Below the pieces are notes generated by a model. The model saw only the letters and a list, made by a program, of their open reading frames with translations, ran no database searches and was not told the DNA's origin. Below, piece after piece: positions 1 to 31,752 of a stretch of DNA of 32,000 nt. Numbering within the stretch: the first letter of the stretch is position 1; every line of letters starts with the position of its first letter. The stretch comes from Pantoea sp. Nvir. Its GTDB lineage: Bacteria > Pseudomonadota > Gammaproteobacteria > Enterobacterales > Enterobacteriaceae. Location: NCBI RefSeq assembly GCF_009829915.1, contig NZ_SZZW01000008.1, forward strand, positions 4,707 through 36,706. The letters run 5' to 3'. The position numbers and the translations under genes were made by a program.

Positions 1-1080
1 ATTTATGAAATTTTCTCTTTCGATACGAATTTTGTTAGAATAAATTTGTGATATTTTATGAGGAGAATGAAAAAGAAAATATTTCTCAAGAGGACATGTA
101 GATCCGGGGATATCAGCTTCAACAGCTCCTGCTTTATTTAATTGTTCAACAAATTGTTTGATATTAATTATAAATTGGTTCTGATTAAATAATATTGGTA
201 ATGCATACCAAGCAGGATTAGCTTTTTCCGGTACTCGGACAACTTTTAGACCTTTAATTGCATCGATACCTTGTTTCATCAATAATGCAGTTTCACGTTT
301 TTCTTCCATCATCTGCTCAAAATAATCCATTTGTGGAAGAACAACCGCAGCTGCTAAAGGATGCATACGTAAATTTAAGCCTGTGCCAGTTGTAGAAAAA
401 TCTTTTAAGTCTTCGTAGCAGACCTCTTTTATAGCACGTTTATTAAAATGTCCAACAAGAACTGCTCTTTCGTACATTCTACGATGTTTCGTAGCAAAAA
501 AACCACCTTCTCCAGAAGTTAAAATTTTCTTTCCCTGAAAACTCCAAGCCGCACCATCAGCAAAACTACCTACTATTTTCCCATCCCATGTTGCACCATG
601 AGCATGCGAGCTATCTTCAAGTAAGAGTAGGTTATGTCTAGAACAAATATCCATGAGCGCGTCAAGATCACATGGAATACCCCACATATGAGTAATGACT
701 ACAGCTTTAGTTTTAGAAGTGACTAGAGATTCAACCGCTTGAGGGTCAATATTTCCGTTGTCACCACAATCCGCAAATTTTAGTTCAGCACCTAACTGAT
801 GAAGTGGTGCACAAGTAGCAAAAAACGTATAGCTAGGTACTATTACCTCATCTCCGTGAGTAATTCCTGCACCATAAAACATAGAGAATAAGGCAGTGGT
901 TCCAGAATTTACTGCAATGGCGTTTTGTACATTAAATTTTTCTTTAAATTTTCTCTCCAAACGTTCATAGATACCACTATCGTCATAGATTGATATCTCT
1001 TCCATCAGCTGAGTTTGAACACTAGAGCATATCTCATTAGTAATCTTAGGGTGAATAAACTTTGAATATTTAACATTCAT
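1..1080 (-). CDS. DegT/DnrJ/EryC1/StrS-family PLP-dependent aminotransferase (amino-sugar/aminocyclitol type); partial, 3' end runs off the left window edge
   Basis: Not in the supplied track because there is no stop inside the window. My reverse-complement translation from the ATG at 1080..1078 stays open for all 360 codons down to position 1: MNVKYSKFIHPKITNEICSS...AVNSGTTALFSMFYGAGITHGDEVIVPSYTFFATCAP...LLLEDSSHAHGATWDGKIVGSFADGAAWSFQGKKILTSGEGGFFATKHR... The NSGT-AL motif, the E-D-x-x-H/Q-A-x-G motif and SFxxxKxxxxGEGG (PLP lysine) are family hallmarks. AAGGAA lies about 9 nt upstream. The start is 14 nt after the stop of ORF 1095..2060, so the two form an operon. Confidence 0.8.
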   Translation of the reverse strand, partial: MNVKYSKFIHPKITNEICSSVQTQLMEEISIYDDSGIYERLERKFKEKFNVQNAIAVNSGTTALFSMFYGAGITHGDEVIVPSYTFFATCAPLHQLGAELKFADCGDNGNIDPQAVESLVTSKTKAVVITHMWGIPCDLDALMDICSRHNLLLLEDSSHAHGATWDGKIVGSFADGAAWSFQGKKILTSGEGGFFATKHRRMYERAVLVGHFNKRAIKEVCYEDLKDFSTTGTGLNLRMHPLAAAVVLPQMDYFEQMMEEKRETALLMKQGIDAIKGLKVVRVPEKANPAWYALPILFNQNQFIINIKQFVEQLNKAGAVEADIPGSTCPLEKYFLFHSPHKISQIYSNKIRIERENFIN

Positions 1081-1094
1081 AATAAATGTTCCTT

Positions 1095-2060
1095 TTAATC
1101 TGTTAATTTATTATATTTACTACTTTCAAAAGCTTTTTCTAGAACACGCATCAAAGAAATTGAGCTATTTAAATTTCTTTCAAACCCTGCTTCTCCCCCC
1201 TCAAAGAGAAATTCTTTATACATTCTAGAAAATGATGAAATATCTTTAACTTTTATAGCATAAATTATCTCTTGCTTTTTGTTCTTTACAACAACTTTTT
1301 TCTTATTTGCATAAAATATTTTATTTTGTCCATAAACAGTAATATCTTCATGCTTTTGCAAAGCTACACATGATATATATGCAATTATGATAACCTTGTC
1401 GCATTCGAGTTCAACAAACGCAATATCGTCTACATTATACTCTCCATTAGAAGAGTTAATTAACCTAGCGTGGTTAATTTTAATTTCCTTTCCATTAAAT
1501 AAATAATTAATAATATCTACAACATGGTGTCCCATGTCTAACCATACACCTCCTCCAGATGTAGAGAACTGACTTCTCCATCTTCCATTTGGATTCCTGC
1601 TAGGAATTGTATATCTAATATCTATCTGAAATATTTTTTCTTGCGTTTCATATATTTTATTTTTTAGAATTTCATATGCTAGTGTATATCTTTTCTGGCA
1701 TACTGTAAGTATCTTAAAATCACGATCACGTGATAAATCACTAAAAATTTTCGATTGAGATAATGTTAAAGCAAATGGTTTTTCTTTAATAACTTTCATT
1801 GGAAAGTTACTACAGTAACTAAGTACCTCATAATACATTGCATGGGGTAATGCAATTACAACCGTATCGGGTTTTATTAAACTAATTAATTCTTTATAAC
1901 TTAAGAAACTGGGTACATAATAATTAAGAAGATTCCTTACATTATTTATGTTCTCTTGTAATAAATCACATACTCCATAAATCTTTACTCCTAATGAATC
2001 TATAGCCGGTATATGTTCTTTTATGACAATATTACCACATCCGATAATAGCAAGTTTCAT
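1095..2060 (-). CDS. Gfo/Idh/MocA-family NAD(P)-dependent oxidoreductase (sugar/inositol dehydrogenase-like)
   Basis: 321-aa ORF. It has an N-terminal Rossmann motif (MKLAIIGCGNIVIKEHIPAI) and the family-typical EKP motif (VIKEKPFALT). A perfect AGGAGG sits 5 nt upstream of the ATG (plus-strand cctcct at 2066-2071). Confidence 0.8.
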   Translation of the reverse strand: MKLAIIGCGNIVIKEHIPAIDSLGVKIYGVCDLLQENINNVRNLLNYYVPSFLSYKELISLIKPDTVVIALPHAMYYEVLSYCSNFPMKVIKEKPFALTLSQSKIFSDLSRDRDFKILTVCQKRYTLAYEILKNKIYETQEKIFQIDIRYTIPSRNPNGRWRSQFSTSGGGVWLDMGHHVVDIINYLFNGKEIKINHARLINSSNGEYNVDDIAFVELECDKVIIIAYISCVALQKHEDITVYGQNKIFYANKKKVVVKNKKQEIIYAIKVKDISSFSRMYKEFLFEGGEAGFERNLNSSISLMRVLEKAFESSKYNKLTD

Positions 2061-2367
2061 ATTAACCTCCTAATTTTATGGTAAGGGAATACCCTTTTCT
2101 ATATAAATAATATATAAAAAAGTAATATAATAGATGAGATATTATTTACTTTTTACGTAAATTTAAATTCTTTCTAATAAAGAAAGAGATTTAACATCTC
2201 TATTTTTTAACATTAATTTATATAAAAATAATTTGATACTTATCATATGTTTAAAGAGGGATTTCATATAAGATCAACAATATATTAGAGTAGTAATTAT
2301 TCTATATTGCAGATCATATATAAAATAATTAAAAAATTAAAGTGCTTTTATAACTTAAAACTATCTA

Positions 2368-2400
2368 ATTAAAAATAAGAATTTAATTCTTATTTTTAAT
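2368..2400. repeat. 33-bp perfect palindrome (16-bp arms, 1-nt centre) in the divergent intergenic region; candidate operator
   Basis: attaaaaataagaatt-t-aattcttatttttaat was checked base by base. The half-site aaaaataagaatt recurs exactly at 3160-3172, about 100 bp upstream of the 3276 ATG. Confidence 0.75.
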
Positions 2401-2845
2401 CTTTCAATAAAAAGCAATGTAGTTCTATATAAATAAGATATATAAATTATATCATTTATATTATATATGATATTTTTTATTTTTATGTACAGAAACTGTA
2501 TCTTCGATATTTTTTTTCATAAAAAAAGAAAATTATTTCTTTATTTTAACAGTACTAAATATGATCTAGCTAAATAAAATAATTTAAAATATTTTAATAA
2601 ATTACTATTCTAAATTTATTAGTGTACTCTCCCTTTTTAAAAGGGATTCACAAATCTAGAGGATTTTTTAAAATTAAGATTGTATAATAAAATGTTATCA
2701 AAAACCTTTATTTCTGATATACCACACTTTTTATAAAAGTAAATTACATTAAATCACTGTTATTAACTATCAAAATGATTTCTTATTTTTACTTAGTTTT
2801 GTATTGAATCTTATTCAAGTTTTTTATTGTATGTTAATTCTTGAT

Positions 2846-2889
2846 AGATAATAGACTATCTTCTTGAATAAGAAGATAGTCTATTATCT
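2846..2889. repeat. Perfect 20-bp inverted repeat with 4-nt loop (stem-loop or protein-binding palindrome)
   Basis: Left arm agataatagactatcttctt is 2846-2865, loop gaat, right arm aagaagatagtctattatct is 2870-2889. There is no flanking T-run on either strand, so it is not a classic terminator. Confidence 0.8.
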
Positions 2890-3275
2890 CACTATATAGT
2901 AATCTTATTGGGTTCACAAGTTATTTATTATTATTTTTTGACAAGCCTCAAAATTGCTTTATTAAAAAATCAGTATTAATAATATTTTGTAAAAAATAAA
3001 AACATATCAATAATTTGATAAGAAAATTTTACAGTATAAAAACAATTATTTATTTAATATAAAAGTTATTATAAAAAAGAAAAATCAGTGATATGTAATT
3101 AATTCTTACATATCTATTTTTAGAGATAGATTATATCATATGATATTCTCTCTTACTTTAAAAATAAGAATTAAATAATATACTACATATCGTAGTTTGA
3201 TAGTATTTTCAATATTCAGGAAAGTATATTTGTATTATACCATCTATAAATCTTTTAGTATTTAGAGGAAAAAAT

Positions 3276-4031
3276 ATGCGATTAATGATTAAATCTAGTT
3301 TAGCACTTTATGAAATTAAACGACGTTTTACTTATCTTAATGAGTTTTATTATAATGAAAATAATTTTTTTCGGAAATCTTCTAATTTTTTACAATTTGT
3401 CCGAGATGAAGGATTATTCTCTATACTAATTCATGAATTATTAGCTAATGAAAATTATTTAACTGAAATTGCATCTAATTCATATAAGCACGTGAATCAT
3501 TTTTCTAAAATTGTTTTAATTAACGACACAAATAAAAATAACTGCCGCCTAACGCTACATATTTGGAAACCCCCATTTACTAAAAATGAAATTAATCAAG
3601 AGCTTATTCATGATCACCGTTTCAGTTTTTCTTCTTATGTTCTTTGTGGGACGCAGATACATGAAATTTTTTATGAATCTAAGAAAAGACCAATTTCTAA
3701 AGTTCGATTTCAAAAATATAAATATCTTCCGTCCATTACAGGGAATATCCATGACTGTTTTTTTGAGAAAGATGTCTACCTGAATAAAATTGCAGAAAAG
3801 ACCGTTAGTCGTGGCAATATATATACTATGCGCAGTGACGTTATTCATCGTATAGTGTTTCCTACTGGTAATGAACCTATCATTTCATTTTTAGTAAGGG
3901 GAAGACAAAAAAAACATTATACTTACACATATAATACATTTTATCCTCGTAAACATACGTTATTTAACGTTCCAATGTATACAACGAACGAATTACGTGA
4001 GTTACTGAAATATACTTTAGAAAAAATCTGA
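3276..4031 (+). CDS. Hypothetical protein, cupin-fold 3-His metalloenzyme-like (cysteine-dioxygenase-like HxH...H pattern)
   Basis: 251-aa ORF with GAGGA 7 nt upstream. The segment RLTLHIWKPP...ELIHDHRFSFSSYVLCGTQIHEIFYE resembles the CDO/COG5553 double-stranded beta-helix motif (xIHDHxxSxxxxxxLxGxL). A distal His lies in DVIHRIVFP. The functional call is weak. Confidence 0.45.
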   Translation: MRLMIKSSLALYEIKRRFTYLNEFYYNENNFFRKSSNFLQFVRDEGLFSILIHELLANENYLTEIASNSYKHVNHFSKIVLINDTNKNNCRLTLHIWKPPFTKNEINQELIHDHRFSFSSYVLCGTQIHEIFYESKKRPISKVRFQKYKYLPSITGNIHDCFFEKDVYLNKIAEKTVSRGNIYTMRSDVIHRIVFPTGNEPIISFLVRGRQKKHYTYTYNTFYPRKHTLFNVPMYTTNELRELLKYTLEKI

Positions 4032-4043
4032 GAATATAATATT

Positions 4044-4871
4044 ATGAGTCTTATTGTTCATAAAGAAGGTTCAGTGCATGAACGGCATGGTGCATATAAT
4101 ATTTTTCGTCAACTAGCTGTGAAGATTTTTGCTGATCATATTGATGATATTCAGTATTATAAGTGGCTTGACGAAATTCCTCATAAAGTGAGTAATCTTT
4201 TCCCTTCTGTAGAGTTTAAAGAACACGATTGGGTAAGAGTTAATCCACCTTTGAATACAGCCGTATATTACGACACTCCTAAATATAATATACTTCCTAC
4301 CGGTTCCTTATTGAGAACATCTTGTAGTAAACTTACCCATGCTTTTTGTGCTTTTAAGATGCCTGAGGATACAACAGGTAACCGCTTGGATAGGCGTCAT
4401 GTATTTGTAGGTAAAGAAAAAGCTATTATCCAGAATGATCCTGGTAGTAAGGCCGCTGTCAGTATTGTTAAAAAACTTATTACCCGTAGCGACGTTGATC
4501 AACCAGGTACTTTTCTTAAGCTAACTACTGGGATTTCACCAAAAAAATTGATTCCCTCCATGATGTTAAAGGGTTATCGTACAACATTTTATGTTCTTAT
4601 AGATGGCTATGATATCCTACGATGTTCTCTCGATCGTTCCTCGGTATGTGATATTCGTTTTAGTAATTATACAGAAGATCTAAGTACTTGGAAAAATTTC
4701 CGAGAAATTGAGTTATCGCTTTATCCAAGAATTGCAGACACCATTAAAGGCGATCCCCGAGTTATTCAAATTATTAAATTCTTACGGGATTCTCTTATTA
4801 AAAGGTTTAATACAAATGTTATTTATAATATAAAGTATCAGCGTGGTATGACATTGCTTGGTAAATATTGA
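4044..4871 (+). CDS. Hypothetical protein; C-terminal half faintly CYTH/triphosphate-tunnel-like
   Basis: 275-aa ORF starting 13 nt after the previous stop, so likely in the same operon. The segment TFLKLTTGISPKK...KGYRTTFYVLIDGYDILRCSLDRS...FREIELSLYP resembles the CYTH strand pattern K-x-R-x-x-[FY]...lD...f-x-EIE. No N-terminal ExExK motif is seen, so function is unassigned. Confidence 0.5.
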   Translation: MSLIVHKEGSVHERHGAYNIFRQLAVKIFADHIDDIQYYKWLDEIPHKVSNLFPSVEFKEHDWVRVNPPLNTAVYYDTPKYNILPTGSLLRTSCSKLTHAFCAFKMPEDTTGNRLDRRHVFVGKEKAIIQNDPGSKAAVSIVKKLITRSDVDQPGTFLKLTTGISPKKLIPSMMLKGYRTTFYVLIDGYDILRCSLDRSSVCDIRFSNYTEDLSTWKNFREIELSLYPRIADTIKGDPRVIQIIKFLRDSLIKRFNTNVIYNIKYQRGMTLLGKY

Positions 4872-5078
4872 AATTTTCTTTCAAAAAATGCCATGCTTTC
4901 CGATAGATTATAAGTATCTATTCAAATCTATAAGAGATAAAAAATTAATTGCGCTTATTTTTAGTCTTGGGCGAAATAGTTTTCTATTTTTTTGTTGATC
5001 TTTATTTTTAATATTTTAAAAAAATTAATTATAAATTATTGCTTCAGTATTATCTTTTAGATAAATTAGGATTCATGA

Positions 5079-5717
5079 ATGTCTGATACTGCTCTTATGT
5101 TATTTAAACCAGAGTTTAATCTTATAGAACGCAGAAGATTTTATCCGCTTATCCGGGACTATCTTACTCTTTTTAACCTCTCTGTTGAGAAAGAGTGTGA
5201 AATATGTACTAGAGATGAAAAAGAGCTTCTTTTCGATTGTGTTTATTCTAGACTTCTTAAAAATGCTCGTAGTAAGTATGAGGATAATTGTATAGGAGGA
5301 TACACTTATTTAGCATTAAAAGCTCAAATTACTGATGAGCAGCTTTTCCGCGAATGGGTTTCTCCACAGAATATAGCTCTGAGTCTCAAAGAAGATTGCT
5401 ATTATCTACAAAAGGATGGACAGAAAGTTATAAATCCTTTCTGTCCATATCAGAGAAGGTTGTTCACTGAAAGTACCACGTCGGTGCATCTTTTTCTTCT
5501 CAGCAAAAATAGTTCTTTATCATGGTCGGAAATTAAACCACTTTTTTAGGGGGATCCTATACAGTTTGGTGAGAACCACAGTGGGATACGTTCACATCTT
5601 AGTCAATGTAGCTGGTATACTTCTTCTACTAATGGCCTCCATTTATCAGCATCGTGTGCTGATGCTTATAAAGAAACTCATGAGGTGATGACATTTTTTA
5701 CTAATAGAGGTTTGTAG
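5079..5717 (+). pseudogene. Nucleoside-diphosphate-kinase-like gene interrupted by one in-frame TAG (5547-5549)
   Basis: The track ORF 5079..5549 (156 aa) begins ALMLFKPEF, compared with the NDK motif TFSIIKPNA. The same frame continues after the TAG with GDPIQFGENHSGIRSHL...TNGLHLSASCADAYKETHEVMTFFTNRGL*, stopping at 5715-5717. This part aligns to the NDK C-terminus (LLGATNP...GTLRADY...[20 protein letters not shown]). The NxxH catalytic-His motif therefore lies downstream of the stop. AGGA lies upstream of the 5079 ATG. Confidence 0.55.
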
Positions 5718-5725
5718 TTCGTAGT

Positions 5726-6280
5726 ATGAAAAAAGAACTTATTCTTATCCGACACGGCCATTCAGAGTGGCAGGCTGATACTACATCTGATGATAAAAAC
5801 AGTCATCTAACAGATAGAGGAATAAGGGAAGCGAGAAAATTGTATAATATGCTTACTGAGTATACGGACTTTACTAATTTTTATTTAGTGAGTAGTCCTT
5901 TACATCGCGCTGTAGAAACTAGTCGCCTAGCTTTACCTCCCTCTCTTTTTTCGTCAATCTTTTTTGATAAGAGTTTTTGTGAAGCATCTTTTCACGTACG
6001 ATCTGAACTAATTTTATCAAAGGATTTTTATCCTGAATTAAAAGGCTCACTAAGCCAAGAATATCTAAATTTTAAGTCAGCTATTAAAACAGCATTGGCC
6101 CGTGTGCTCGCTGTGCATGATCGTGTCATGATTTTTACTCATGGTGGAGTTATCAAGACTATTCTACGTCTTCACTGTGGCTCTGATGCATTCTGTACAC
6201 AGATTGACAATTGCTCAGTTACGCACTTTATAAAAAATAAATATGTATGGTTACTTCGACGAGTTAATTATAGATACTAG
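5726..6280 (+). CDS. Histidine phosphatase superfamily (branch 1, phosphoglycerate-mutase-like) protein
   Basis: 184-aa ORF. It carries the RHG motif (LILIRHGHSEW), LTDRGIREA, SSPLHRAVETS and a distal THGG, which together form the canonical catalytic core pattern. It starts 8 nt after the NDK-like frame ends. Confidence 0.8.
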   Translation: MKKELILIRHGHSEWQADTTSDDKNSHLTDRGIREARKLYNMLTEYTDFTNFYLVSSPLHRAVETSRLALPPSLFSSIFFDKSFCEASFHVRSELILSKDFYPELKGSLSQEYLNFKSAIKTALARVLAVHDRVMIFTHGGVIKTILRLHCGSDAFCTQIDNCSVTHFIKNKYVWLLRRVNYRY

Positions 6281-7102
6281 GTTAGATTGCAGTCGTGTCC
6301 ATAATATTAAATCTTTATTTATAAATTGTATTATTTAGTATTTATCTGAAATTTTATGCCGAATACTGCATTTAGTTATTTATAAAAAACTTTAGAAAAC
6401 TATATATTTACTTATAAAATTAATATGACTCCCTTCATAAGGGAATCATATATACTATATGACTTTTTTTAAAAAAAGTAAAAGAAGTTACTTCTTTCTG
6501 TAGTAAAGAAAAGTAATTTTATGACATACTTAGTATATATATGAAAAAATAATTATAATTATGTTGTAAAGTTATATAACTTTACTATTATGATCTGTAG
6601 TTATGATTAACTAGAATTAATTTCATATAAAATTCATAATTTTTATGTCCCATTAAATTTAATTTGGAAAATATTTCCTATTAAAAATTAATTTAAATTA
6701 AAGTATTTTTTATTAGTTTGAAAAACTATACTTTTTATATTAAAAAGTGGTTTTGTTAGATGAGATTAATGATGGAAAATATGGAAATATATAGGTCTTA
6801 ATGTATTTCCCATTGATTATGAACTTCTTTAAAAAAGAAAATAAAGGGTTATTGATATGAAAATATCTGTAACCGTGCATATATACTGAAAATTAATGAT
6901 TTAATCAGTAGTTCAAAGAGAGATTTAAATAAATTAGTTTAAATTGTTCATGTATTTATTTACATTTTTTTAAAAATTTTCTTTCCTTTTCTAGAGTGAT
7001 TCACTATGCCACGAATTTTCTTAAATAGTCTTCTAGAGAAGCAACCTCTACTTAAGAGTACTAGTAGTGTTTGGATTTTATTTTTTCACTCTAGTACTAT
7101 TG

Positions 7103-7111
7103 TTATCCACA
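7103..7111 (+). promoter_or_regulatory. Consensus DnaA box TTATCCACA (origin 1)
   Basis: Exact 9/9 match, lying at the outer edge of the origin-like region upstream of repA-1. Confidence 0.75.
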
Positions 7112-7123
7112 GTTTTACAGGTT

Positions 7124-7172
7124 AGATCCAATAATTAGACCAATAAGATCCTATATAGTACCAAATAGATCC
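7124..7172. repeat. Three phased AGATCC (GATC/Dam) repeats of origin 1
   Basis: AGATCC occurs at 7124, 7146 and 7167, with spacing of 22 and 21 bp. The repeats lie between the DnaA box and the iterons, as in P1-type oriR. Confidence 0.65.
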
Positions 7173-7219
7173 CCGTAAGCTGTAGGCCGCACTGTACTTG
7201 GCTTAAAGGCTTATCCTGA

Positions 7220-7324
7220 TGTGTGCTGGCGGGATAAAAATGTGTGCTGGCGGGATAAAAATGTGTGCTGGCGGGATAAAAATGTGTGCTGGCGGGATAA
7301 AAATGTGTGCTGGCGGGATAAAAC
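7220..7324 (+). repeat. Five directly abutting 21-bp iterons (tgtgtgctggcgggataaaaa) of replicon 1
   Basis: Units are at 7220, 7241, 7262, 7283 and 7304. Four are identical and the fifth ends ...aaaac. The array ends 50 bp upstream of the repA-1 ATG. Confidence 0.9.
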
Positions 7325-7374
7325 TACTTTTAGTGCATTCTTTGAATTCTTTTTTAAAGAAATGAGATAACTCA

Positions 7375-8241
7375 ATGATAGATAAGTTTTTTATAGCTGA
7401 TGCACTCTACGGTGATATGGTCAGTAAAGAAAAACAGCTCACAGTTAATTCGAACAATACTGTTCAGCCAGTTGCACTCATGCGACTTGGGGTCTTTGTT
7501 CCAAAGCCGACTAAATCACAGGGTGAGAACAACATTGTTGATGCATCTGAGTTATTTTCTCAGCTTGAACTTGCAAAAGCTGAGGGGTATGACAATATCA
7601 ATATCTCTGGTCCGCGCCTGGACATGGACTGTGATTTTAAAGTTTGGATAGGCATAATCTACGCGTTTAGTAAAGGTGGTATGAATACAAATAAGATTGA
7701 ACTCAAGTTCACAAAATTTGCAAAAGGTTGTGGCTTTTCAGCAAAGCGTATAGATGGTCGTCTACGTAGTTCTATCCATGATTCTTTGGGTAAGCTGAGG
7801 AATAAGTCTATCTCATTTAAACGTGGCGCGGATGTACGAGGAAGCTATCAAACTGGTTTATTAAAAACTGGTTACTTCGATGCTGACAGAGATATCATTC
7901 AACTTGAAGTAGATGAAAAGCTTTGGGAGCTGTTTCAGCTAGACTATCGAGTGTTACTGCAACAGTACGCTATTAAAGCTCTTCCGAAGAAAGAGGCTGC
8001 ACAGGCTATATACACGTTTATCGAGAGCTTACCAGCTAATCCAGTACCTGTGGGTTTCCAACGTTTACGTGAACGCCTATCGTTAACTAGTACTGTAAGC
8101 GAACAGAACCGTACGATAAAAAAGGCGTTGGATCAACTTCAACATATTGGATATCTGAAATTTTCTTTATTTCGCAAAGAGCGGGAGAATTTTTTAATTA
8201 TTCATAAAAGAAACCCAAAATTAAAACAATTGGATTTATGA
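7375..8241 (+). CDS. repA: Plasmid replication initiator RepA, P1 RepA / RepFIB family (replicon 1)
   Basis: 288-aa [33 protein letters not shown] and EAAQAIYTFIESLPANPVP match the remembered RepFIB RepA sequence ([19 protein letters not shown]..., [32 protein letters not shown]). The gene is flanked by iterons. Confidence 0.9.
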   Translation: MIDKFFIADALYGDMVSKEKQLTVNSNNTVQPVALMRLGVFVPKPTKSQGENNIVDASELFSQLELAKAEGYDNINISGPRLDMDCDFKVWIGIIYAFSKGGMNTNKIELKFTKFAKGCGFSAKRIDGRLRSSIHDSLGKLRNKSISFKRGADVRGSYQTGLLKTGYFDADRDIIQLEVDEKLWELFQLDYRVLLQQYAIKALPKKEAAQAIYTFIESLPANPVPVGFQRLRERLSLTSTVSEQNRTIKKALDQLQHIGYLKFSLFRKERENFLIIHKRNPKLKQLDL

Positions 8242-8244
8242 AAG

Positions 8245-8260
8245 TGTGTGCTGACGGGAT
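8245..8260 (+). repeat. Downstream iteron copy of replicon 1 (15/16 match, direct orientation)
   Basis: tgtgtgctgAcgggat lies immediately after the repA-1 stop. Confidence 0.7.
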
Positions 8261-8404
8261 GTACAGTTGCTTTGTTGAATACAAAGAAGTGTGACTACAT
8301 AACAAAACTCTCCTTATAAACACTGTTACATGTGCAATCAGAGGTAGTTAAGACATTAACAACCCACTTTTATACTTATTCATTTTGCTTAGAAATTAAT
8401 ATAC

Positions 8405-8420
8405 ATCCCGCCAGCACACA
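8405..8420 (-). repeat. Downstream iteron copy of replicon 1 (16/16 core, inverted orientation)
   Basis: atcccgccagcacaca is the reverse complement of tgtgtgctggcgggat. Confidence 0.75.
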
Positions 8421-8945
8421 TTTAAGATTCTCGTCAAACTATGACCCTAAGTTACAACTATTTATTTGATAAGAGTATTTTTTCCATTGTAAGATCGCAC
8501 AGTTGAGAAAATACAGATTTGTATAGTAAGGTGTAGAGACCACTAAACGGAGGCATATTATAGAGCTGATACTAAATACTCTACAGCAAAAGCACAGTAC
8601 TACTAAGTAGTGCAAAGGATATTATAATTTCAAATTATCCTTATATTTTGTGATATACTGACTAAAGTATCTTATAATCCCCTGTTTTAAACAGCTAAAC
8701 ACGTAAAACTTAAGTTTATAGTTACAATAATGCCTTATTTACCACGTTAACACCTTCAGTCAATGTTATATGATAGATAGGATTGTCATCAAAATTGATC
8801 GCGAGTGTGTATTTTGAAAAAAATTAAAAACCAGTTACAGTATACCCTGGTGCCATAACTAAAATATGACGGTACACCGTTAATAATTTAACTTATATGA
8901 TATAGGTTAAATTCGAAAAGATAAATGCGACAATATGGTGAAACC

Positions 8946-9572
8946 ATGTTCATCAGAGCTTATTTAAGGGCGTCAACAGAAGATCAGTTTGCCGATCGGG
9001 CAAAAAAAGTCTTAGAACAATTTGTTCAAGAACGAGGGCATAAAATAGCTAGTTACTATAGTGAAAATGTGAGCGGTACAACGCTTGACCGTCCGGAATT
9101 GGGGCGGTTACTAATGGATAGCCATCACAACGATATTTTACTAGTAGAACAAATAGACCGACTAACCCGTCTAAGCAACAGTGACTGGATAACAATGAAA
9201 AAACAGATTGAGCAACATAAGCTCCGCATTGTCAGTCTGGATGTTCCTACCTCATGGCAGGCACTGTCGGATAAAGAACCCTCACAAACTGATCCAATAA
9301 CACACGCCGTTATTACAGCTATCAATAACATGCTAATTGACTTAATGGCAGCGATGTCACATAAAGATTGGTTAAGCCGACGTCAAAGGCAAAAACAGGG
9401 GATAGAGCGGGCACATATGCTAGGTAAATACCGAGGAAGACGTGCCGACCACGATCGGCACCAGAAAGTCTTGTACTACCGACAGGTTAAAAAACTAAGT
9501 ATACGGGAAACTGCAGACGCCACAGGATACAGTACCTCCCAAGTATGCTGGTCTGGTATCCGTTCCACTTAA
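8946..9572 (+). CDS. Serine recombinase (resolvase/invertase family)
   Basis: The track ORF starts at 8925, but the family-typical start is MFIRAYLRASTEDQ (catalytic-Ser motif Y-x-R-x-S-x-x-x-Q) at the 8946 ATG. Also present are DRPELGRLL, LLVEQIDRLTR and a C-terminal HTH-like LSIRETADATGYSTSQV. Confidence 0.85.
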   Translation: MFIRAYLRASTEDQFADRAKKVLEQFVQERGHKIASYYSENVSGTTLDRPELGRLLMDSHHNDILLVEQIDRLTRLSNSDWITMKKQIEQHKLRIVSLDVPTSWQALSDKEPSQTDPITHAVITAINNMLIDLMAAMSHKDWLSRRQRQKQGIERAHMLGKYRGRRADHDRHQKVLYYRQVKKLSIRETADATGYSTSQVCWSGIRST

Positions 9573-30810: not shown

Positions 30811-31752
30811 TCAATCATTAAAATTAAGTGTGTTGATCAATTCTATATTTTCAAAATTGCTTATCCCATCGAGCTTCGGCGTGCGACTATGGATGATAAA
30901 AAATACCGAACACCCGCGTTTGCCTTCTGAATAATCTAGATAACCTATTTTTTTCAATTGCTCCATAGCACGCCGCACGACATAATTTTGTGTGGTTATT
31001 TTAGACCCTAAATTCAAACGTATGCGAAGACGTGCCAGTGAAATAGGTGCTGGATTTATCGGAAGACTCTCAAGGAACGTATAGAGTGCTTGGGCAGATT
31101 CTTTGCGCTTGAGTTGGGATATTGCCCTAAGTTGCAGTAAAACTTTATGGTCGAAATTATATAATTCAAACAATTTAGGATCGGACTGAATTCTGACCAC
31201 ATCTTTTTCTCGATCGTAGTAGGCTGATTGCACTAAATGAGTATGATAAGCCTTACCATTTCCTTCAAAAGATAAAGTGTTAGTCGATATACGGCGTAGG
31301 GAAGCATCGAGTCTTTTACGTAATGCTGCCGACGAGTTGGCCGAAGGGATGCCACACATTTTTACAAAATCTATAAAGGGCAAGGTAACAGTGTCCCCTT
31401 GAGTGGGATAACGTGAAAAGGATTGAATTATTCCAGCCCAAGTTTTAAAATCGTTATCCATGTCCAACCGTGCGCCGGTAATGATTACCTTCTCATAACC
31501 CTCTGCTTTTACTAGTGAAAGATTCTTTAGTTCCTTAGTCGCATCAGTAGACGCCATCACACCAGATTTACCGCGTGCTGTTGATTTCAATGTCGGGACA
31601 AATAGCCCCAGCCGCATCAAAGCGACAGGCTGAACAGTGTTATTTTTGTTAGGATGAAGCTGAATAACTTCACCGCCATTTTTGGTTACCAACAGAAAAT
31701 TTTTAAGCAATTCTTTGTTTTTAATATTTTCATCTGACATAACATGAGACAT
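30811..31752 (-). CDS. repA: Plasmid replication initiator RepA, P1 RepA / RepFIB family (replicon 2)
   Basis: 313-aa [90 protein letters not shown] and [11 protein letters not shown] lie closer to the remembered RepFIB RepA than the first copy does. The start could be the M at 31740. Confidence 0.9.

Follow-up and report, generated by a model that had tools for sequence, protein, structure and literature searches.

A candidate nucleotide-tailoring cassette on a plasmid of a stink-bug gut symbiont, with homologues of three nucleocidin fluorination genes

The question raised by this locus is what a cupin, a CYTH-like protein, a nucleoside diphosphate kinase (NDK)-like protein and a histidine phosphatase could do together on a plasmid of an insect symbiont. 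The genes lie in a 32,000-nt stretch of contig NZ_SZZW01000008.1 (positions 4,707 to 36,706 of the forward strand; hereafter the window, from whose first letter all coordinates are counted) of Pantoea sp. Nvir, which lives as a symbiont in the gut of the stink bug Nezara viridula and whose NCBI proteins are 100% identical to the products of the first two genes. An earlier note on this DNA had recognized four open reading frames (ORFs) on one strand, and these are indeed present on the + strand, spanning 3276-6280: gene A (3276-4031, 251 aa), gene B (4044-4871, 275 aa), gene C (5079-5717, 212 codons) and gene D (5726-6280, 184 aa), of which A, B and D are intact and C contains a nonsense codon. 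The gaps reported there of 207 nt between B and C and of 8 nt between C and D are right, and that between A and B measures 12 nt instead of 13. The note knew of no described system with this composition, and on this point it has to be revised: A, B and D have homologues in the nucleocidin cluster, namely Orf(-3), Orf2 and Orf3, respectively. We consider it somewhat probable, on balance, that the region is a plasmid-borne cassette that tailors its substrate at the nucleotide level and yields a modified purine nucleoside.

In the nucleocidin producers Streptomyces calvus and Streptomyces virens, the genes orf(-3), orf2 and orf3 are each essential for 4'-fluorination and are dispensable for sulfamylation, glucosylation and export; the knockouts still make the non-fluorinated congeners (Wojnowska et al. 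2023, PMC10946740). According to the same study, Orf(-3) has a cysteine/thiol-dioxygenase fold with the residues Tyr73, Trp100, His115, His117 and His200, Orf2 has a triphosphate tunnel metalloenzyme (TTM) fold, Orf3 is a histidine phosphatase, and the complementation of orf2 worked only jointly with orf3 (PMC10946740). The A copy of S. calvus T3018 (locus L014 of the set described below), when numbered from the Met of MVVQAV, places Tyr73, Trp100, His115 and His117 exactly at the published Orf(-3) positions. The A protein of the window aligns with this copy over its full length, and its Y70, W97, H112, H114 and H191 correspond to Tyr73, Trp100, His115, His117 and His200. The identities to the S. 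calvus T3018 copies, taken from the best tblastn segments, are 48% for B, 37% for A and 32% for D. Thus, the same three families (3-His cupin, TTM fold and histidine phosphatase) appear in both clusters, and the Tyr/Trp/3-His set is kept in A.

The arrangement of the genes, on the other hand, is different. In S. calvus the order is A, NUDIX, a 175-aa ORF, Gfo, a Na+/H+ exchanger, B and D (the last two adjacent, at L014 9971-11440), with a pair of genes for a SAICAR-synthetase-like protein and a short-chain dehydrogenase/reductase (SDR) nearby, and this block, together with genes for an AdoHcyase-like protein, a major facilitator superfamily (MFS) transporter and a HAD protein, is found in S. 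clavuligerus, S. cinnamoneus, Kitasatospora and others. Whereas orf3 directly follows orf2 in the nucleocidin cluster and A and B are four genes apart there, A adjoins B in the window and the NDK-like gene stands between B and D, as in other Enterobacterales. Furthermore, the cassette of the window contains no sulfamylation genes, no glucosyltransferase (nucGT), no Gfo-plus-Na+/H+-exchanger genes and no NUDIX gene; the Gfo/Idh/MocA gene of the window sits in a divergent adg-like operon and is only distantly similar to orf1. The host, too, is of another kind, namely a low-GC plasmid of an insect symbiont, with no sign of fluorometabolite production. The only biochemically defined C-F bond-forming enzyme, the fluorinase FlA (5'-fluoro-5'-deoxyadenosine synthase), also works on an adenosine scaffold, but it is unrelated in sequence and fold, attacks C5' of S-adenosylmethionine, and is absent from the nucleocidin producers (PMC10616807). 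In the literature searched, with subscription journals outside its scope, there was no later paper on the mechanism of the nucleocidin trio. Two other labels were considered for these genes and discarded. One would make the trio responsible for halogenation in the 2'-chloropentostatin/adechlorin cluster, whose chlorination is attributed, according to the reference list of PMC13055916, to an Fe/2OG halogenase; the other was an aristeromycin- or angustmycin-type label for the Streptomyces clusters.

How general is the association? The neighborhoods of B were mapped by three routes, namely contig look-ups, a one-genome-per-species scan (40 loci) and tblastn mapping. Among the 48 non-duplicate loci with B, A is present in 42 and D in 40. 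The order A, B, D is kept in about 40 independent loci, with D directly 3' of B or of C, and each of the three genes has dozens to hundreds of full-length homologues. The pairwise-identity matrices of the three proteins correlate with each other over 34 loci (rho 0.77-0.87), values that, the pairs not being independent, speak for co-inheritance rather than giving a probability. The hosts include Enterobacterales (Erwinia, Pantoea, Paramixta, Photorhabdus and Providencia), Actinobacteria (Streptomyces, Kitasatospora, Nocardiopsis and Solirubrobacterales), Alphaproteobacteria (among them a Rickettsia endosymbiont), Hahella, Acidobacteria, Chloroflexia, Chitinophagaceae (Bacteroidota) and Clostridium. 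Taken together, A, B and D are a conserved, co-inherited and co-evolving trio, to which C is an accessory; of the four-gene unit proposed in the earlier note, the wide co-occurrence was borne out and the membership of C was not. Neither of the findings by which the earlier note would have had its reading overturned was made: the genes do occur together elsewhere, and A and B were not placed in unrelated families devoid of a link to phosphate or nucleotides.

The motifs on which that note had relied (H112-D-H114 and H191 in A, E221-I-E223 in B, FKPE and N-x-x-H-x-S in C, RHG...HGG in D) are all present, and their columns are invariant in the family alignments. The four assignments built on them are all right as to fold or superfamily and fared unequally at the level of sequence: those of A as a cupin and of D as a histidine phosphatase were upheld, B agrees with a CYTH-like protein in predicted fold and fails the sequence tests for the family, and C belongs to the NDK superfamily by profile comparison and falls short both of the Pfam threshold and of an intact reading frame.

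As a single sequence, A has no match in Pfam, including CDO_I (PF05995), in NCBIfam or among the PDB sequences. The AlphaFold2 (AF2) model, calculated from an alignment of 36 sequences (pLDDT 92.6), is a cupin, and its top Foldseek matches are mercaptosuccinate, cysteine and 3-mercaptopropionate dioxygenases (8vni at E=7e-7, then CDO/MDO entries). Y70, W97, H112, H114 and H191 are invariant in the 36 sequences, and the family has at least 212 members. The model therefore describes A as a 3-His cupin with a thiol-dioxygenase fold, that is, as an oxygenase-like protein. A shares with cysteine, 3-mercaptopropionate and mercaptosuccinate dioxygenases the cupin barrel and the 3-His metal site devoid of a carboxylate ligand, and differs from them by the missing CDO_I match, by a long N-terminal four-helix extension and by many invariant Arg and Lys residues. 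The latter suggest that the substrate of A is anionic, such as a nucleotide.

B is similarly silent at the sequence level, with no Pfam match at E<=1 and none in NCBIfam or PDB when used as a single sequence. The AF2 model obtained from a 32-homologue alignment (pLDDT 94.9) matched in the PDB, by Foldseek, YgiF (5a60, E=3.6e-10), then bacterial CYTH proteins, VTC4, class IV adenylyl cyclase and thiamine triphosphatase; all top matches are TTMs, with a probability of 1.0 and a target-normalized TM-score of up to 0.72. B is thus predicted to be an eight-stranded antiparallel beta-barrel tunnel with the TTM/CYTH fold. The likeness to the known members (YgiF, bacterial CYTH, CyaB, VTC4, ThTPase) consists of the predicted closed tunnel, of invariant basic (K27, R91, K105, R114, R118, R179, R193, K264 and R267) and acidic residues (D77, D116, D197, E221 and E223) at alternating positions of the predicted strands, and of an E-x-E strand near the C-terminus (E221-I-E223). 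This alternation would fit a charged tunnel. However, B differs from canonical CYTH proteins in several respects. It has no N-terminal ExExK, its first long strand reading N-I-F-R-Q-L-A-V-K, in which Q23 and K27 are invariant and a Glu pair is missing; it has no Pfam CYTH (PF01928) match; it possesses an extra N-terminal strand-helix unit; and canonical CYTH proteins are encoded by separate genes in some of its clusters, with no sequence link between the two by hhalign (probability 0.4%). B homologues from several phyla reduce to two full-length representatives at 50% clustering; when 1.84 billion cluster representatives were searched with a profile, only these two and fragments were recovered, and no distant relatives. 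This conservation is unusually strong for a gene that is patchily distributed and moves horizontally.

D is the most conventional member of the trio. It matches Pfam His_Phos_1 (PF00300) over residues 5-181 of 184 (E=4.5e-20; 72.6 bits against a cut-off of 21.7 bits), carries R9-H10-G11 and the distal H139 of an H139-G-G motif, and is accordingly a branch-1 histidine phosphatase; it reached no NCBIfam equivalog threshold.

C had no match in Pfam, NCBIfam or PDB as a single sequence. Nevertheless, a profile of C and its longer relatives, which take the place of C in the loci of other phyla, found in the PDB NDKs only (32 of 32 matches, best E=2.5e-4) over the region G-x-x-R...N-x-x-H-x-S...E, and hhalign linked C to a Pfam-recognizable NDK of a Streptomyces cluster with 74% probability. 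Pfam NDK (PF00334) was matched weakly, below its threshold, by three of the 11 members of the C family (best E 0.0038). The motifs are L-F-K10-P11-E12 and N185-G-L-H188-L-S190-A-S, the latter followed by TFF, and in the 11 sequences K10, R171, N185, H188, S190 and E199 are invariant and Y56 nearly so. The K-P N-terminus, Y56, R171, N185-x-x-H188-x-S190 and E199 resemble Lys12, Tyr52, Arg105, Asn115, His118, Ser120 and Glu129 of NDK; the differences are the subthreshold Pfam score, an insertion of 60-100 residues in the middle of the protein and a length of 270-350 aa for the relatives in other phyla. The short form of C is confined to Enterobacterales (7 loci), where Erwinia, Pantoea, Photorhabdus and Pantoea sp. 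Aalb have intact orthologues; a further 7 loci have the long form. C is therefore best described, from profiles and motifs, as a putative divergent NDK-like kinase encoded by a lineage-specific accessory gene.

In the window, however, C is interrupted by an in-frame TAG (5547-5549, +), where six orthologues have the Gln codon CAG or CAA. Because a second assembly of the Nvir symbiont has the same TAG and because of these Gln codons, the stop is a real single C-to-T change (CAG to TAG). If it is not read through, the product is 156 aa long and keeps K10 and Y56, but it ends before the catalytic His and loses the C-terminal 56 residues, with R171, N185, H188, S190 and E199; the gene thus appears to be an inactivated pseudogene, or else the source of a truncated protein. 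The 56 codons past the TAG are still well conserved, and therefore the loss of C is recent.

The genes that recur beside the trio, nucleotide enzymes or transporters, point to the chemistry in which it may take part. A NUDIX gene adjoins A in 20 loci; a canonical CYTH gene is found in 11 loci, Gfo/Idh/MocA and HAD genes in 11-12, an ApaH-type metallophosphatase in 5 and an NDK in 4. MFS and TauE-like transporters also recur, the latter in about 8 loci (Hahella and Enterobacterales), and the clusters of free-living Pantoea include a VOC protein of resistance type and a gene that is named deoxynucleoside kinase by the annotation pipeline PGAP. In 21 of the 48 loci, from Streptomyces to Alphaproteobacteria and Chitinophagaceae, the gene immediately upstream of B encodes a Na+/H+-exchanger-like protein (L007-L009, L012, L014-L019, L021-L023, L025, L028, L030, L043, L045, L046, L048 and L049), which could be a partner of the trio for the supply or export of an ion or halide; there is none in the window. 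In many actinomycete clusters, among them those of Streptomyces and Kitasatospora (L014 716-2150; L015, L018, L021, L045, L048 and L049), the trio is adjoined by the SAICAR-synthetase-like and SDR pair, which we take to be a signature of coformycin-type biosynthesis. Coformycin-type deaminase inhibitors usually accompany an adenosine analogue, and the presence of the pair hints at a co-produced adenosine-deaminase inhibitor. Because of the nucleocidin and coformycin-type clusters and of the NUDIX, NDK, CYTH and deoxynucleoside-kinase neighbors, the phosphorylated or nucleotide-linked theme proposed in the earlier note is retained here. A phospho-histidine relay as the common principle would be a hypothesis.

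A separate observation is that a leucine-rich-repeat protein of about 270-400 aa is encoded beside the cassette in about a dozen loci of Photorhabdus, Hahella, Streptomyces, Solirubrobacterales and Chloroflexia (e.g., L001 11223-12035 and L003 13499-14416). Such a protein is odd for a metabolic cluster, and the similarity may be partly repeat-driven.

Upstream of A, a second operon is read in the opposite direction. Its first gene, adgB/pur10-like, encodes a Gfo/Idh/MocA oxidoreductase (1095-2060, -; Pfam), and the second, adgC/pur4-like, a DegT/DnrJ/EryC1-type aminotransferase (1-1080, -), of which the window holds the first 360 of 399 codons before the gene runs off its start. The complete operon is present in the second Nvir-symbiont assembly (L050 6624-10084) and encodes a Gfo/Idh/MocA protein of 321 aa, a DegT aminotransferase of 399 aa, a NUDIX protein of 143 aa and a member of the inositol-monophosphatase family of 269 aa. 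In Photorhabdus luminescens, adgB-E are homologues of pur10, pur4, pur7 and pur3 and suffice in E. coli for the production of 3'-amino-3'-deoxyguanosine (ADG) (PMC9239236). The neighbor operon encodes these four families in the order of adgB-E, is likewise low in GC, and starts with MKLAIIGC where AdgB has MKLVIIGC (deduced from a published primer, the only direct sequence comparison); it differs in that no MFS exporter (adgA) was seen in it and in its physical junction with ABCD, which occurs in Nvir only. By analogy, the operon would make a 3'-amino-3'-deoxy purine nucleoside.

Related stink-bug symbionts have each module as nearly the sole cargo of plasmids of 6-7 kb. In Candidatus Pantoea carbekii, the adgBCDE-like four genes and RepA make up the whole of plasmid pBMSBPS2 (L054), whose NUDIX and phosphatase genes had been read in the 2015 genome paper as the stress genes MutT and SuhB, and adgBCDE-like genes also occur on a plasmid of the Plautia stali symbiont (L055 8025-11472). 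P. carbekii carries the other module on pBMSBPS4 (7.6 kb), with A, D, a phospholipase-D-family gene, a split B and a degraded C. In Pantoea sp. Aalb, ABCD, with C intact and without adg genes, is the sole cargo besides replication genes of a 6.9-kb contig. Thus, the coupling of the cassette to the divergent operon, as surmised in the earlier note, is plausible in Nvir without being conserved, as P. carbekii has each module on a plasmid of its own and most ABCD loci have no adg genes. The ratio of nonsynonymous to synonymous substitution rates (dN/dS) between symbionts is about 0.09-0.2 for A, B and D and about 0.33-0.43 for C, values that are rough because dS is saturated. The low ratios of the trio, together with its retention on small plasmids, argue that A, B and D are kept under constraint in these genome-reduced symbionts and that C is dispensable. 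The split of the P. carbekii B gene (L038 4090-4110) arises where a stretch of eight A residues (GAAGAAAAAAAATTATTC) differs in length by 1 nt. It may reflect an error of sequencing or a genuine frameshift, or else transcriptional slippage may rescue the site, as has been reported for other AT-rich symbionts.

If the region is a nucleotide-level tailoring cassette, its enzymes might act as follows. The pathway would run on a purine nucleotide, the phosphorylation state of which would be set by the NDK-like protein, keeping up the nucleoside triphosphate (NTP) pool, and by the trimming NUDIX protein in other lineages. B would bind the polyphosphate in its charged tunnel and hydrolyze or cyclize it, and A, as an Fe-cupin, would use O2 to oxidize the ribose, with C4' as the likeliest position; fluoride or another nucleophile could there capture a radical or oxocarbenium species beside the ring oxygen. 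D would then take off the last phosphate and release the modified nucleoside, and the transporter of the fuller clusters (MFS, TauE-like or Na+/H+-exchanger-like) would export the product or handle an anion. One may speculate that the frequent Gfo partner provides a 3'-keto-nucleotide intermediate, as in the Pur10/AdgB reaction. The best explanation of the plasmid as a whole would then be that the adgBCDE-like operon and the cassette form a small nucleoside-antimetabolite island, probably retained by the stink-bug symbionts for competition or for the protection of the host.

Several points weigh against this scheme. The members of the A and B families have no known biochemical activity, and what follows from the nucleocidin knockouts is that the genes are needed, not that their products are catalysts. 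The triphosphatase chemistry of B is assumed from its modeled fold alone, in a protein with neither ExExK nor sequence similarity to CYTH. The copy in the window is accompanied by none of the transporters of the fuller clusters, its C is truncated, and the P. carbekii cassette has a frameshifted B and no longer has C, so that the pathway may be decaying in the symbionts. Moreover, the dN/dS values suffer from the saturation mentioned above, and the linkage to the adg-like operon is confined to Nvir. A stronger form of the proposal, in which A, B and D, alone or joined by the NDK-like protein, make up a self-sufficient system for C4' functionalization of a purine nucleotide and the C-F bond former in the nucleocidin producers, is accordingly put forward as a long shot.

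The decay just mentioned leads to the most resistant of the other explanations, according to which the operon is a non-functional relic here, carried on a plasmid that is retained for other reasons. The nonsense codon of C is fixed in two isolates, the cassette of the window lacks the MFS, TauE-like, kinase and VOC genes of its free-living relatives, and P. carbekii shows a frameshifted B and a degraded C. Yet A, B and D are full length with every invariant residue in place and have rough dN/dS values of about 0.1-0.2 against the other symbionts; three symbiont lineages keep small plasmids with the cassette as the main cargo; the good conservation of C past its stop marks this mutation as recent; and the 1-nt change in the A run of P. 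carbekii could be an artifact of sequencing or be rescued by slippage. A relic is therefore unlikely, although it deserves to be kept in mind.

Somewhat less credible still, and distinctly unlikely, is that the cassette serves self-protection or house-cleaning by detoxifying a toxic nucleotide analogue, for example the triphosphate of an adg-like aminonucleoside, with B stripping the triphosphate and D the last phosphate. ADG is toxic only once converted to its triphosphate (PMC9239236), the chemistry of a TTM and a histidine phosphatase suits the conversion of an NTP to a nucleoside, both modules are kept by Nvir and P. carbekii, and a VOC gene of resistance type flanks the free-living versions. 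However, the published adg cluster of P. luminescens consists of adgA-E alone, with no A/B/C/D-type genes (PMC9239236), and Pantoea sp. Aalb, like most of the loci, has ABCD with no adg genes. In addition, the S. calvus knockouts lose fluorination specifically and still make the non-fluorinated congeners (PMC10946740), and a detoxifying role would leave the conserved 3-His oxygenase-like partner unexplained.

The thiol-dioxygenase folds closest to A, and the TauE-family genes in the Hahella and Enterobacterales clusters, could also be taken as signs of sulfur metabolism, in which A is a true thiol dioxygenase that forms a sulfinate, the TauE-like protein exports sulfite or sulfonate, and the phosphate enzymes handle a phosphorylated thiol. 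This is very improbable, since A is not matched by Pfam CDO, sulfamylation is unaffected in the nucleocidin knockouts (PMC10946740), TauE-like genes occur in only about 8 loci and not in the window, and the neighbors are overwhelmingly nucleotide enzymes. A role of B as a cyclase-like maker of a second messenger, in signaling or anti-phage defense, is suggested by the TTM fold of class IV adenylyl cyclases and by the frequent location of the loci on mobile elements, and is hardly credible for a cassette with no PADLOC match and no effector-type genes that associates with transporters, coformycin-type genes and antibiotic clusters.

A nucleotide-tailoring role, if correct, bears on a decades-old puzzle, the origin of the 4'-fluorine of nucleocidin, for which three Streptomyces genes are the only lead, and a genetic one. 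The trio was already known genetically; what is new here is its version on a symbiont plasmid and its minimal form in Enterobacterales. The nucleocidin "fluorination genes" are thereby recast as a widespread, portable trio, present far outside the actinomycetes and arranged in compact operons in Enterobacterales, with the consequence that either its role is broader than fluorination or the production of organofluorines or other 4'-modified nucleosides is far commoner than thought. The invariant residues and recurring partners provide a comparative data set for the chemistry of the trio, and the 7-kb symbiont plasmids, with the trio as near-sole cargo, offer a minimal, E. coli-compatible test system for nucleocidin chemistry. 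Should the system prove self-sufficient at C4', it would represent a second biological fluorination, or a general chemistry of nucleophile capture at C4', in a portable cassette of three to four genes that is distributed over no fewer than seven phyla or classes of bacteria. The 7-kb plasmids would be among its carriers, and the obligate insect symbionts that harbor them may employ its product, along with the aminonucleoside, as a defensive toxin. The retention of two small, presumed nucleoside-antimetabolite modules by genome-reduced stink-bug symbionts suggests that a symbiosis usually regarded as nutritional also serves defense or competition.

The remaining features of the window concern its regulation and its plasmid setting. 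GC content over the first 7 kb is 19-35%. The two operons are separated by a spacer of 1.2 kb (2061-3275) with about 19% GC, presumed to be a promoter or regulatory region, in which a promoter scan found no more sites than in shuffled sequence. The spacer contains a perfect inverted repeat, with 20-nt arms (2846-2865 / 2870-2889) around a loop of 4 nt, and a perfect 16-nt palindrome (2368-2400), each a possible operator or terminator element. A hairpin 3' of D (6423-6451, 13-bp stem) is a possible terminator and is adjoined by a 23-bp indel polymorphism. The region gave no megablast match to plasmids; the window and five related loci gave no riboswitch, fluoride or other, with Rfam at its gathering threshold; and tblastn with an E. 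coli CrcB sequence as the query gave no fluoride channel near any Enterobacterales locus.

Downstream of D, five perfect copies of a 21-bp iteron (ATGTGTGCTGGCGGGATAAAA; 7219-7323, +) precede a Rep gene (7375-8241, +) with a faint Rep3_N match, and the DNA is therefore assigned to a plasmid. The second Nvir-symbiont assembly (L050, 13.2 kb) matches positions 1-8722 of the window without being identical to it: it differs by scattered single-nucleotide polymorphisms, by the 23-bp indel and by three fewer iterons. Position 8722 is where the match to this 13-kb plasmid contig ends. Beyond it come a resolvase gene, megaplasmid-type genes (glutamate dehydrogenase, fumarase, polyprenyl synthase, ThiF and an FAD-oxidoreductase of the DAO type) and then a second Rep3 gene (8722-9572; 30811-31752), and this part of the window is either a cointegrate or an assembly join. 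Finally, the cassette plasmids of Nvir (L050 11746-12288) and P. carbekii (L038 803-1273 / L053 6318-6836) share a gene of the phospholipase-D family (Nuc-like), with 52% identity between the two.

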